NCBI GenBank assembly: GCA_022394755.1
Contig: JAGFCA010000024.1
Location: 12,368 to 76,367, forward strand
Direction of reading: 5' to 3'
Length of the DNA: 64,000 nt
Origin: Candidatus Poribacteria bacterium
GTDB taxonomy: Bacteria > Poribacteria > WGA-4E > WGA-3G
Below are positions 26,202 through 29,448 of this stretch, one piece after another. The notes beneath the pieces are model-generated. The model saw nothing but the letters and a program-made list of their open reading frames with translations, was not told the DNA's origin and made no database searches. Within the stretch, counting starts at the first letter, position 1. Each line of letters starts with the position of its first letter. The translations under genes and the position numbers were made by a program.

Positions 26202-26237
26202 ACGGGGACAGAAGTTAATCTGTCCCCGTTTTGCTTT
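26202..26237 (+). terminator. Rho-independent terminator downstream of secretin 2
   Basis: Perfect 10-bp inverted repeat ACGGGGACAG-(8 nt)-CTGTCCCCGT followed by TTTTGCTTT. Confidence 0.55.
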
Positions 26238-26907
26238 ATCGTATATTCTTATACAATTGTGCAAGTCTGTCCGTAGAAAACCCAAGAATGTAAAGTAATG
26301 TAATTAGCCAATTTATCAAAGTAGTACGTATTATACCACCTGTTTCCCATCTACGTGCTGATATATGTATCCGTGGACAAACCATAAGTGTTTTCCCAAT
26401 CTTGTTCAGTTCTCTTGAGAATTCAATCTCTTCCATAATAGGAACATCTGGAAAACCACCAATTTTCTGAAAAACATCCCGTTTAATATAAATTCCACTA
26501 TCTCCATAAAATATCTTAAGATATTTTCCTCGAAGATCAGCAGTCTTTTCAATAATTCGGTATAGTGTATTCTTTCCTTCGATTTTCTGTAGAAAACCTC
26601 CACCCACAACCCCAGATGTAATTGCTTTCTCAACAGATGCCAATGCACCTTCCTCTAACCATACATCAGCATGTAAAAAAACAAGAATGTCACCATTTGC
26701 ATTAGCTGCTCCAACATTTAATTGTTTAGCACGTCCCTTTTCAGACTTGAATACATTAGCATATTTTTTTGCAATATCAAATGTAGTATCAGTACTTCCA
26801 CCATCAACAATTATCAATTCATGTCCATTCAATTCAATTTGTAATCTATGTAATGTCTCTTCTAAAACCCTATCTTCATTTAGGACAGGTATAATTACTG
26901 AAATCAT
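26236..26907 (-). CDS. Family 2 glycosyltransferase (small single-domain GT2)
   Basis: MISVIIPVLNEDRVLEETL...LIIVDGGSTDTT...AKQLNVGAANANGDILVFLHADVWL. GT-A fold with DxD-like DGGSTD. Confidence 0.8.
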   Translation of the reverse strand: MISVIIPVLNEDRVLEETLHRLQIELNGHELIIVDGGSTDTTFDIAKKYANVFKSEKGRAKQLNVGAANANGDILVFLHADVWLEEGALASVEKAITSGVVGGGFLQKIEGKNTLYRIIEKTADLRGKYLKIFYGDSGIYIKRDVFQKIGGFPDVPIMEEIEFSRELNKIGKTLMVCPRIHISARRWETGGIIRTTLINWLITLLYILGFSTDRLAQLYKNIR

Positions 26908-26938
26908 CTTGGATTTTCGTTATAGTTGGAATATAAAC

Positions 26939-28654
26939 TTATTCTTTCCCTCTTAGATACTCATTTAGAGCCAAGATTGGAAACACAGAAGCATAAATCG
27001 GATCACTATATCCACCGATAATTTCCCAATAAATACCAACACAACTATCTTTCCATGTGCCATTTTCATGCTGATTTTCAATAATATATTGGATACCTTT
27101 CTGTGCTGACAGGTTATCGTTATCTATTGATAAGAGAGCGTAAGTACTCCAAGCAGTTTGTTCAATCGTGCTTTCTGTGGGGTTGCCAAACATATCTTCC
27201 CCCCAACCACCATCTGCATTTTGGTTTTGTTCCAACCAACGGACACCTTTTGTAATCTCCTGAACGTCTTCAAAACCTGCCTTCACCAAAGCTACAATTG
27301 CACATGCAGTTCCATAAGTTCTTTTAGCTAACCATAGATCGTCCCAATATCCATCAGAATTAATTGCCCTTTGTAACCAATGTATACCACGATTTATTGA
27401 TTCATGATTGTCTTCATAGGCTAACAACGCTTCAATTGCATGAGAGGTAATACTAACACACCCTACATCACCTATCCCGGGTTGGTATGTACTCCAACTA
27501 CCATCTGAACCTTGATTGTCAAGTAGCCAGTTAATACCCTGATCTACAGAACTATTTGATTCATCCGAAGAGAGTTTTGAACGAATTAAGGCTAATGTAC
27601 CTAATGCAGTATCATCAGCATCACTTGGGAGTGTACTATCTTTCATTCCAGAAAATGCCCATCCACCATCTTGATTTTGATGATCTACAAGCCATTGGGC
27701 TGCATTCTGAATTAATTCAGATTTATCAGGCGGTAATTCGTCAACATCTGTTAGGGTAATGATACTTAGGGCAGTATCCCAAACATTCAAATTAATTGCT
27801 TCTCGATACCCACCATCTTGATTCTTGGTTGATTTTAACCAATCCATTCCTTTGTTAATAAATATTGGTATCTCGGAGTCATCAGGGTGTATCCTATTCA
27901 CTTCAATTAGAGCCAATACCGATAGGGCAGTGATATAATTAACACGAAACCAACTCCCATCACCTAACACTCTTGATTTTAGCCATTCGACAAGAGAATT
28001 GATTACCTCTATTCTATTTGTTGTATTCAACTCAATTAAGATAAAGACCGGCACTAATGTATGTTGTTCAGCAATGAAAAATTCTTCAAATAGCGATGTA
28101 TTGAATAGATCAACAGGTGGAAGTTTATGTCTTGGGGGTTTCAATACATTTCGTAGAATTGGAAACTGTGATAAGTATTTAACTACCTTTATTAATGGTA
28201 TGGCATTCTTTGGAATAGATAATTTTTCCCAATCAAAGCGATCCAAAGACGCATAAGCCAGCTTGACTAAACCCAGATTTTGCTGATATTCAGGGATTCG
28301 AGCGATTAGTTGTTCAAGATCTATTTCATTTTCTCGTTTATTTGACTCTTCCAAGATAAGTCGAACAAATAATGTAGAATTAGGATTTGTTTGATTCGCT
28401 GTATCTAAACCCCACGCTCCATTTTCACTCTGATGATCTATGAACCATTTAATTAAAGATTCTTCTGGAATCTCGTCTTTAATCAATTGAATCCATGCAA
28501 CAGCACAAGAAGGAAATGTACTTGAGGATAATTCTCCTTCAAAATTACCCTCAGATTTTTGCATCAAAGACAATGCCTCTATCGCCCGAATCAATCTTGA
28601 TTTTACAAGTGCTTTAGATTTCAGGTTATCTTCGCTTATAGAACTTTCGATCAT
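26939..28654 (-). CDS. Prenyltransferase/squalene-cyclase repeat (alpha/alpha toroid) protein, possible class II terpene cyclase-like
   Basis: Multiple QW-type repeats (QDGGYREAINLNVWDTALSIITL; QDGGWAFSGMKDSTLPSDADDTALGTLALI; QGSDGSWSTY; QNADGGWGED; QHENGTWKD). A D-A-D-D-T-A string resembles the DxDDTA of squalene-hopene cyclases but could equally be the generic D..T..AL of prenyltransferase repeats. Confidence 0.6.
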   Translation of the reverse strand: MIESSISEDNLKSKALVKSRLIRAIEALSLMQKSEGNFEGELSSSTFPSCAVAWIQLIKDEIPEESLIKWFIDHQSENGAWGLDTANQTNPNSTLFVRLILEESNKRENEIDLEQLIARIPEYQQNLGLVKLAYASLDRFDWEKLSIPKNAIPLIKVVKYLSQFPILRNVLKPPRHKLPPVDLFNTSLFEEFFIAEQHTLVPVFILIELNTTNRIEVINSLVEWLKSRVLGDGSWFRVNYITALSVLALIEVNRIHPDDSEIPIFINKGMDWLKSTKNQDGGYREAINLNVWDTALSIITLTDVDELPPDKSELIQNAAQWLVDHQNQDGGWAFSGMKDSTLPSDADDTALGTLALIRSKLSSDESNSSVDQGINWLLDNQGSDGSWSTYQPGIGDVGCVSITSHAIEALLAYEDNHESINRGIHWLQRAINSDGYWDDLWLAKRTYGTACAIVALVKAGFEDVQEITKGVRWLEQNQNADGGWGEDMFGNPTESTIEQTAWSTYALLSIDNDNLSAQKGIQYIIENQHENGTWKDSCVGIYWEIIGGYSDPIYASVFPILALNEYLRGKE

Positions 28655-29448
28655 TGCTTTAGATTACCCCATAAAATGGGTAAGGTATTGTGAGTCAACT
28701 CAACAGCTTGTGGACCCTTTAGATTAGGACTAAGTACATCAGCTTCCCGTGCAATATCACTTATACGTATTTCATCCATAAAACCTACCCATTTAAATTG
28801 CCTTGTATTCTTACTCCCAATAACGACATCATAATCACCTTTTTGAAGTTTTCCACTATGGTTTGTAGATGCAGCCTCTTTTCCATTTATATACAGTTTT
28901 ATTGTCTTTGAATCAAATGTACCAGCGATGTGTTGCCACTTTTCAAGCTCCAGTACACCCCCTGCTTCTGCTGAGGAAGATCCTTTACTTGTATTTATAT
29001 GAAATTTTGCTCCTCCATTCGAAACACCTAAATGGAAAGCACCGGGAGGTCCATCCCAATTCGCACATATAAGTCTCCAGCCTGTTAAATCTTCAGGATA
29101 TACCCACGCTTCTACCGTTATAGCAATATCAGGAATCAATTCATCAGCTTTTCCAAGTGAAATTACTGAATCACCATCAAATTTGAATGATTTCCCTGCT
29201 ACATTTTCTTTATTCCAATCTTGATTATTATCCCATGCACCTTTGCCTTCAATGTCAGCCTTCACTCCATTGTCTGATTCATCCGTAACTTTTCCATCAT
29301 TAAAATGCCATAACCCCAGAGTATTCTCATCAGGAATATATTCATATCCCCCATCTCCATAACACAGCATGATACCTACGATTATTAATAAACATGGTAC
29401 CATATAACATAACTTACTATTAAACATTACTGTTCTTCTCCTATACAC
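28651..29448 (-). CDS. Exported LamG-like (concanavalin A-like lectin/glucanase fold) domain protein
   Basis: N-terminal hydrophobic signal/anchor (MVPCLLIIVGIMLCYG). Motifs LWHFNDG..DESDNG..GK..W......SFKFDG and WQHIAGTFD..TIKLYINGK typical of Laminin_G_3 domains. 4-nt overlap with the downstream gene. Confidence 0.5.
   Translation of the reverse strand: MYRRRTVMFNSKLCYMVPCLLIIVGIMLCYGDGGYEYIPDENTLGLWHFNDGKVTDESDNGVKADIEGKGAWDNNQDWNKENVAGKSFKFDGDSVISLGKADELIPDIAITVEAWVYPEDLTGWRLICANWDGPPGAFHLGVSNGGAKFHINTSKGSSSAEAGGVLELEKWQHIAGTFDSKTIKLYINGKEAASTNHSGKLQKGDYDVVIGSKNTRQFKWVGFMDEIRISDIAREADVLSPNLKGPQAVELTHNTLPILWGNLKQ

Follow-up and report, generated by a model that had tools for sequence, protein, structure and literature searches.

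A predicted class II terpene cyclase seen only in Candidatus Poribacteria, and the GT2 glycosyltransferase encoded beside it

What does a protein resembling squalene-hopene cyclase (SHC) do in a bacterium when the DNA around its gene carries no gene for squalene or hopanoid synthesis? SHC-family cyclases make membrane-stiffening lipids that leave molecular fossils. What the divergent SHC-like clades act on is a recognised gap (PMC7306690, PMC12324236), and one more case is offered by a stretch of 64,000 nucleotides from a Candidatus Poribacteria genome (GenBank assembly GCA_022394755.1, contig JAGFCA010000024.1, forward-strand positions 12,368 to 76,367), hereafter the window. Three closely packed genes on its minus strand encode a protein with a LamG domain (28651-29448), a 571-aa cyclase-like protein (26939-28654) and a 223-aa GT2 glycosyltransferase (26236-26907), as described in an earlier note on this DNA, which took them for a translationally coupled operon that could act in the cell envelope. 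The cyclase-like protein is 100% identical to JT359_06325, annotated as "hypothetical protein". The reading that we favour, with confidence a little better than even, is that an active class II cyclase specific to Poribacteria and a dedicated GT2 make a cyclised, probably glycosylated isoprenoid lipid, and that the substrate is probably not squalene.

The cyclase and its clade

Profile matches and predicted structure place the 571-aa protein among the class II terpene cyclases, with two domains (beta-gamma). In Pfam, it matches SQHop_cyclase_C (7.3e-49) and SQHop_cyclase_N (5e-17) in addition to the toroid models TED_complement and Prenyltrans; the specific cyclase models are thus recovered and not only the generic Prenyltrans repeat. 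The QW repeats pointed out earlier are present as five strict Q-x(2,3)-G-x-W motifs and about four degenerate ones. The likeness of a DADDTA string (residues 345-350, minus strand 27605-27622) to the DxDDTA catalytic-acid motif also holds, as this string, the only one in the protein, aligns exactly on D374-V-D376-D377-T-A of SHC and takes the same register in the clade profile; a D.DDTA pattern arises in 0.065% of shuffles of the same protein. Among solved structures, the best sequence match is the SHC of A. acidocaldarius (2e-38). The AlphaFold2 (AF2) model, with a mean local confidence (pLDDT) of 83 and a predicted template-modelling score (pTM) of 0.84, is a beta-gamma double alpha/alpha-barrel, for which Foldseek retrieves SHC as best match (3sqc, TM 0.72), followed by oxidosqualene cyclase, drimenyl-diphosphate synthase (SsDMS), Rv3377c and ent-CPS, all with probability 1.0.

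The residues supporting the general acid have their counterparts too: H405, Y447, W441 and W292/D293 align to H451, Y495, W489 and W312/D313 of SHC, and Y390, Y549 and Y554 to Y420, Y609 and Y612. The three aspartates of the motif (D345, D347, D348) are invariant in the 221 full-length clade sequences, which span 39-100% identity, and so is the acid network, with the exception of Y554 (Y in 190 sequences, N in 31). Together, the SHC-type fold, the DxDDTA general acid and the supporting residues argue for a catalytically competent enzyme, and it is from these that we infer its activity. The full DxDD is the alkene-protonating form, the epoxide-opening cyclases using DCTAE, and therefore the substrate probably ends in an ordinary isopropylidene double bond. 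No signal peptide or transmembrane segment was detected in the cyclase by hydropathy scan (maximum KD19 1.29), and the protein is therefore presumably cytoplasmic or monotopic, like SHC.

Low family scores and remodelled D/E-ring residues and channel loop set the cyclase apart from SHC orthologues. The earlier note had remarked that it is shorter than SHC (the difference is about 60 aa), and it scores 145 bits against the SHC equivalog model TIGR01507 (cutoff 431.1) and 171.6 bits against the subfamily model TIGR01787 (cutoff 322.7), whereas true SHCs from other sampled loci reach 698-785 bits in the same TIGR01507 test. F601, F605 and L607 of SHC are aromatic or steric residues that stabilise the C/D/E-ring cations. 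In the Poribacteria clade, F601 is replaced by isoleucine (I541, 220 of 221 sequences), F605 by I/V545 and L607 by glycine (G547, 221 of 221), and Q262 by a residue that is mostly asparagine (N239). A clade-specific Y542-W543-E544 is invariant, as are R284, E285, E196 and C399. The 421-450 loop of SHC, which lies between Y420 and H451 and contributes to the substrate channel, lacks 16 residues in the cyclase, and nothing in the cyclase could be aligned to SHC residues 145-244, a region that includes W169 and the membrane-binding helix. Since the hopene D/E-ring residues and the substrate-entry loop are replaced by another invariant set, squalene is probably not the substrate.

The cyclase belongs to a monophyletic clade that is seen only in Candidatus Poribacteria. 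A HMMER scan of 1.84 billion representatives retrieved three full-length 50%-identity clusters above 450 bits (59, 54 and 42% identity), followed by fragments; the matches after these stayed at or below about 37% identity or 215 bits. In the species-representative genomes, the clade was found in at least seven, at 53-66% identity, all of them labelled Candidatus Poribacteria, and the next among the matches listed there, at no more than 33% identity, were ordinary SHCs of Actinomycetota, Acidobacteriota and others. Every named clade member is Candidatus Poribacteria; the deepest subclade (the P0243 group) carries this label wherever it is named, freshwater and hot-spring metagenome-assembled genomes included. 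In a neighbour-joining tree, crude and poorly resolved at its deep nodes, the clade was monophyletic in 100 of 100 bootstraps and lay about as far from true SHCs as from four planctomycete "SHC-like" proteins picked by their low SHC scores and DADDT motif. An exclusive sister relationship with these four sequences appeared in 0 of 100 bootstraps of this crude tree of sampled sequences.

Genomic context was compared over 19 non-redundant Poribacteria loci (the window, L001, L003-L011 and L085-L092). In two of them, L086 (1786-6938) and L090 (683-5718), the cyclase gene lies on the same strand as, and just 3' of, a complete rRNA operon (16S, two tRNAs, 23S, 5S), starting 63 nt after the 5S gene in L086 and separated from it by one SpoU methylase gene in L090. 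Such a neighbourhood is suggestive of a housekeeping-type locus and connects the clade with 16S sequences.

A conserved pair and an occasional third gene

A TIGR04283-type GT2 gene lies immediately downstream of the cyclase gene in 15 of the 19 loci, at a spacing that ranges from about 70 nt to a 4-nt overlap, and the pair is retained where both flanks are entirely different (L006-L011, L085-L090). This persistence despite flank turnover points to selection on the linkage rather than to inherited synteny alone. No related GT2 or LamG gene was found at 73 other SHC or SHC-like loci. The earlier note had described the association of all three genes as matching no described pathway. For the cyclase and the small GT2 this stands, as the pair is real and conserved and we found no description of it in the literature; the LamG gene, in contrast, is not co-conserved with them. 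Its orthologue occurs in three of the 19 loci (the window, L004 and L005), and no LamG open reading frame (ORF) was found in the 900-bp gap of L001 or in L003 and L006-L011, so that we rejected the trio as a unit.

Two of these empty positions have features of their own. In L001, an IS605 OrfB/TnpB gene (2552-3736) lies beside the 900-bp ORF-free gap, and in L003 (1-5951) a Type ISP restriction enzyme, a TIR-TPR protein and an AAA_15 ATPase form a defence island directly upstream of the cyclase, at the LamG position. Other candidate partners were also discarded. The GFO/IDH/MocA oxidoreductases, encoded next to the pair at many loci, belong to different subfamilies (21-31% identity for most pairs) and are spread throughout these genomes, and the DUF362 (L088) and Fer4 (L092) proteins encoded upstream of the cyclase are not homologous to each other.

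The GT2 of the window (26236-26907, minus strand) scores 235.3 bits against TIGR04283 (cutoff 182), the GT2 of the deep clade 209.8 bits, and the former matches Glycos_transf_2 in Pfam (6.7e-20). Its hydropathy profile shows a single C-terminal hydrophobic or amphipathic helix at residues ~192-210. Among solved structures it comes closest, with weak E-values, to the polyprenyl-phosphate glycosyltransferases PcManGT (6yv7, 1.7e-7) and Pyrococcus DPMS (5mlz, 2.6e-6). These relatives and the C-terminal helix fit a membrane-interface enzyme that would act on a lipid. Against the HpnB model, it scores 17.7 bits (cutoff 379).

At NCBI, this GT2 is named "arsenosugar biosynthesis glycosyltransferase". 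The name rests on gene neighbourhood, with TIGR04282/DUF2064 and the ArsS-type radical SAM enzyme as neighbours, and it is not backed by context here, because the TIGR04282 partner is absent: no TIGR04282 or methylthioadenosine (MTA) phosphorylase homologue was found in the 329 kb made up by the window and the 19 loci, and no Radical_SAM domain in the annotated Poribacteria loci. We therefore set the arsenosugar reading aside. TIGR04283 members of Burkholderia are 37-43% identical to the Poribacteria GT2; on Burkholderia plasmids, the gene lies between MTA phosphorylase and TIGR04282/DUF2064, whereas its partner in the Poribacteria loci is the cyclase. On one such plasmid, from Burkholderia thailandensis (L142, 6033-9476), MTA phosphorylase, TIGR04283, TIGR04282 and an FAD oxidoreductase follow one another with no radical SAM gene within 7 kb, and the arsenosugar label may be loose even for typical members. 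We found no literature on TIGR04283 or on "selenodomain-associated transferase"; the family was formerly named rSAM/selenodomain-associated transferase 2.

The gene junctions of the window are as first described, with a 4-nt ATGA overlap between the LamG stop and the cyclase start (28651-28654) and a 31-nt spacer between cyclase and GT2 (26908-26938). At the second junction, the spacer lacks an obvious Shine-Dalgarno sequence, and the translational coupling proposed for the operon is thus not shown there in the window. In deep-branching relatives, the cyclase and GT2 genes overlap by 4 nt. A sigma-70-like promoter candidate (TTGTCA-17-TATACT with extended TG, minus strand 29466-29494) precedes the LamG gene, and a 14-bp GC-rich hairpin (26199-26232) lies between the convergent secretin and GT2 genes; both are matches to a consensus only. 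The promoter-like sites of the region do not exceed the number expected from shuffled sequence, and the T-tail of the hairpin is good for the plus-strand secretin gene and weak for the minus-strand operon.

For the LamG gene, the likelier start is the ATG at 29427, which has AGGAG upstream and yields 258 aa (28651-29427, minus strand), compared with 261 aa in an orthologue; the ORF itself reaches a GTG at 29448 (265 aa). The product matches Laminin_G_3 (1.2e-27, Pfam) and bears an N-terminal hydrophobic export or anchor segment (KD19 2.28), in keeping with its earlier description as signal-anchored, and would therefore act across the membrane from the two enzymes. In the window genome, its gene is probably co-transcribed with the pair, yet it stands outside the core module; by its sequence and occurrence, the LamG protein is a lineage-restricted accessory, exported or membrane-anchored. 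In L092, a LamG protein 24% identical is encoded on the other, downstream side of the cyclase, and LamG genes also stand beside UbiA in L124 and L126. We judged these cases to be due to chance: about 6 LamG-like matches occur in about 560 kb of Poribacteria DNA, and the estimated chance of one adjoining the cyclase is about 3% per locus.

Substrate, product and rival explanations

The 47 ORFs of 150 aa or more in the window include no squalene or phytoene synthase, polyprenyl synthase, hpn, UbiA or mqn gene, which bears out, over 64 kb, the earlier remark that the cyclase has no squalene synthase or hopanoid neighbours. More can be learned from the relatives. In L085 and L087, the cyclase and GT2 genes are the last two of a five-gene operon (UbiA, VitK2_biosynth, amidohydrolase, cyclase, GT2); 3 or 7 nt separate the cyclase from the gene before it, and it overlaps the GT2 by 4 nt. 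The UbiA is MqnP-like (299 bits against TIGR01475, cutoff 180.8) and the second protein belongs to the MqnA/MqnD family. For the amidohydrolase, the most specific named match is aminofutalosine deaminase, at 137 bits and below the cutoff, with TRZ/ATZ hydrolase scoring higher. On these matches, the first three genes are assigned to the futalosine pathway of menaquinone synthesis. In L008 and L091, a different, 306-aa UbiA, orthologous between the two (65% identity), is encoded immediately upstream of the cyclase, although the two cyclases share just 50% identity. Where isoprenoid genes do adjoin the cyclase, they are thus head-group prenyl-transfer or futalosine/menaquinone genes and never squalene genes, which favours a head-group-bearing polyprenyl lipid as substrate. 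Directly upstream of the cyclase in L089 lie genes for a sugar-nucleotide epimerase/dehydratase and for a DegT aminotransferase.

The 306-aa UbiA was also considered as a dedicated partner of the cyclase, a candidacy weakened by a scan of 49 metagenome loci. In L114 (408-5912), as in L116, L117, L121, L126 and L127, this UbiA closes a conserved gene string, its usual setting, after genes for a GHMP kinase, a nitroreductase and a Zn-dependent alcohol dehydrogenase; the window has a GHMP-kinase gene (5920-6978) and no UbiA. The thallusin/ebo pathway is not relevant here (EboC match 47 bits, cutoff 250).

Under the reading that we favour, the cyclase would sit at the cytoplasmic face of the membrane and, by protonating a polyprenyl chain at its terminal C=C, fold that chain into one or more rings. 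The chain may belong to a head-group-bearing lipid such as a prenylquinone, a quinol or another UbiA product, the substrate class that we favour. The small, membrane-peripheral GT2 would most likely add a sugar to the product or the substrate of the cyclase, and the outcome would be a cyclic isoprenoid glycolipid of the cell envelope. The cell-envelope polyprenoid or glycolipid module suggested in the earlier note is kept as the best general, though tentative, description of the pair. A narrower version, in which the pair makes, throughout the phylum, a membrane lipid of a class not seen before, a prenylquinone or related UbiA-derived meroterpenoid whose polyprenyl tail is ring-closed by the SHC-type enzyme and then glycosylated, we hold to be unlikely.

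Several observations weigh against a cyclase and GT2 acting together on a head-group-bearing lipid. Four of the 19 loci (L086, L089, L091 and L092) have no adjacent GT2, and a pairing confined to a single phylum could partly reflect inherited gene order. Adjacency to UbiA is the exception, seen in four of the 19 loci and involving two different UbiA subfamilies, and the 306-aa UbiA is usually encoded elsewhere, since in the 49-locus scan the sole cyclase-adjacent copy duplicates L091. The GT2 resembles DPMS-type enzymes only weakly, and AF2 models it poorly (pLDDT 62). Finally, the absence of sqs and hpn genes holds for the window and the 12 Pfam-annotated relative loci, a search that did not extend to whole genomes, and squalene is thus possible as a substrate.

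A divergent but genuine squalene cyclase, making a hopanoid-like or polycyclic triterpenoid that the GT2 decorates in a manner loosely like HpnI/HpnB, is suggested by SHC being the closest relative in both solved structure and sequence, by the conserved A/B-ring and acid residues, and by a hopanoid survey that counts SHC domains in Poribacteria at low levels (PMC12324291). We nevertheless regard it as improbable: the protein falls below both SHC-family cutoffs, other residues stand in the places of F601, F605 and L607, the channel loop carries a deletion, sqs and hpn are missing from the 64-kb window as from the 12 relative loci, and the GT2 stays far from the HpnB cutoff. The length of about 570 aa and the fold, which overlaps with SsDMS (TMt 0.80-0.84), Rv3377c and ent-CPS, would also suit a secondary-metabolite class II cyclase acting on farnesyl or geranylgeranyl diphosphate, like the drimenyl- or copalyl-diphosphate synthases, with later glycosylation of the product. 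However, those enzymes match the cyclase much less closely in sequence than SHC does (E 1e-12 to 1e-5, against 2e-38), no class I synthase, phosphatase or P450 gene lies nearby, and vertical conservation throughout the phylum at a housekeeping-like locus, twice after an rRNA operon, is unlike a sporadic biosynthetic gene cluster; this alternative appears quite improbable.

The adjacency itself could be meaningless, with a GT2 engaged in arsenosugar, other TIGR04283 or unrelated glycosylation and held in place by inherited gene order. The GT2 does pass the TIGR04283 cutoff, all members come from one phylum, in which gene-order ancestry may be shared, and four loci lack the adjacency. Yet the pair survives the complete turnover of both flanks and its genes overlap by 4 nt in the deepest branches, while TIGR04282/DUF2064 and MTA phosphorylase are absent from the 329 kb of Poribacteria loci, which makes coincidental adjacency rather improbable. 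As for the non-catalytic alpha/alpha-toroid binding protein, the second proposal of the earlier note, the matches to TED_complement and Prenyltrans would agree with it, and many "prenyltransferase/squalene oxidase repeat" proteins of the kind found in the Planctomycetes-Verrucomicrobia-Chlamydiae (PVC) group are non-catalytic. One example is a 375-aa paralogue in L089 (11586-12713), a second SQHop_cyclase_C protein encoded 3 kb from the clade cyclase, with a signal peptide and without DxDD. It is likely a non-catalytic secreted toroid, and both kinds of toroid would then coexist in these genomes. The clade cyclase differs from it in having no signal peptide and in having a DxDD triad and supporting acid network that do not vary among the 221 sequences, the most distant of them at 39% identity, so that a purely binding role is highly improbable.

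Surrounding genes and known systems

Next to the pair, the window carries a type II secretion or type IV pilus-like cluster comprising T2SSE (9146-11005), T2SSF (11148-12374), a T2SSG pseudopilin (12492-12947), a T2SSK-like protein (15156-16652) and PilM (16706-18556), and ending in a tandem pair of secretin genes (19939-22941 and 23056-26061) that closely resemble each other and encode about 1000 aa each. The secretin pair also adjoins the cyclase-GT2 pair in L001 and L005. On the other side is a metal-homeostasis block (31058-36772), beside a divergent GFO/IDH/MocA gene, with a DtxR/MntR-type repressor bearing a FeoA domain, a VIT1-family transporter with a 160-aa N-terminal extension, and a ZnuA/ABC-3 uptake system with two permease genes. 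It is followed by a 792-aa protein (36826-39204) that combines an N-terminal DUF255 thioredoxin-like domain with a C-terminal DsbD_N domain. Two adjacent genes (40441-41871 and 41873-44455) encode large leucine-rich-repeat proteins of 476 and 860 aa; eukaryote-like repeat proteins of this kind have been reported in sponge symbionts. A type I phosphodiesterase (45555-46952) and sulfatases (46961-48313 and 59195-60601) are also present, with further sulfatase genes in L085, L087 and L095. Finally, two class I Glu/Gln-type aminoacyl-tRNA synthetase genes stand back to back with a 32-nt overlap (55414-57156 and 57125-58663), one with GlnRS-type C-terminal domains and the other with a GluRS-type anticodon domain.

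What is new here is the clade and its GT2 partner, the enzyme superfamily being already known. The clade is sharply defined, being restricted to Poribacteria, intact in its catalytic residues and remodelled in the cavity that shapes the product, and its constant GT2 partner and occasional UbiA/mqn partners narrow the candidate chemistry. Two weak public annotations are flagged, the "hypothetical protein" of the cyclase and the "arsenosugar" name of the GT2. Should the product indeed be a cyclic isoprenoid glycolipid, this phylum of sponge symbionts, abundant and uncultured, would gain a new candidate biomarker.

The closest known system is SHC (A. acidocaldarius 1GSZ/2SQC; TIGR01507), with which the Poribacteria cyclase has in common the beta-gamma fold, the QW repeats, the position of DxDDTA, the lack of a signal peptide, a probably monotopic nature and the equivalents of H451, Y495, W312, D313, W489, Y420 and Y609, as well as Y612 in most members. 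In contrast, it is about 60 aa shorter and 24% identical, lacks hpn/sqs context at its loci and has a TIGR04283 GT2 as partner. "SHC-like" cyclases without assigned function have been described in PVC and other phyla (Santana-Molina 2020, PMC7306690; PMC12324236), and those of planctomycetes keep their catalytic residues in a context that suggests non-squalene precursors (PMC7306690, PMC12324236); neither study mentions Poribacteria. The Poribacteria cyclase is likewise a divergent SHC homologue from a PVC-type bacterium, with its catalytic residues kept and a context pointing away from squalene, whereas the sampled planctomycete loci have no related GT2 and their proteins did not group with the Poribacteria clade in our crude neighbour-joining tree.

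A further parallel is found in the meroterpenoids made by a UbiA and a class II cyclase, such as merosterolic acid (MstE) and longestin (Lon15). UbiA lies directly upstream of the cyclase in four of the 19 Poribacteria loci, and the proposed action on a head-group-bearing polyprenyl chain is the same. However, MstE is a 350-aa single domain with DxD, whereas the Poribacteria cyclase has two domains and the full DxDD, and the Lon15-type enzymes use epoxides and belong to actinomycete clusters with an epoxidase, while no epoxidase is encoded near the Poribacteria cyclase and UbiA is only occasional. Longestin combines a cyclised long polyprenyl chain, a sugar and an aromatic unit derived from the menaquinone pathway.

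Tail cyclisation also has a precedent in the MK-8(H4, cyclo) of Nocardia, a menaquinone whose terminal isoprene units are cyclised and for which no enzyme is given (PMC3621993, PMC8955186). This is the chemistry that a class II cyclase within an mqn operon would perform; nevertheless, the link to the Poribacteria clade is hypothetical, and the sampled Nocardia homologue (L036) is a canonical SHC by its profile score. Should the narrower quinone or meroterpenoid version hold, the Poribacteria cyclase would be the first enzyme assigned to tail-cyclised quinones. A bacterial UbiA prenyltransferase and an SHC-like cyclase have been predicted in a review to lie behind the hydroquinone merotriterpenoids of sponges, whose origin is unknown (PMC5618424). 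As Poribacteria dominate many sponges, the same version would make the pair a candidate bacterial route to these cyclised hydroquinone meroterpenoids.

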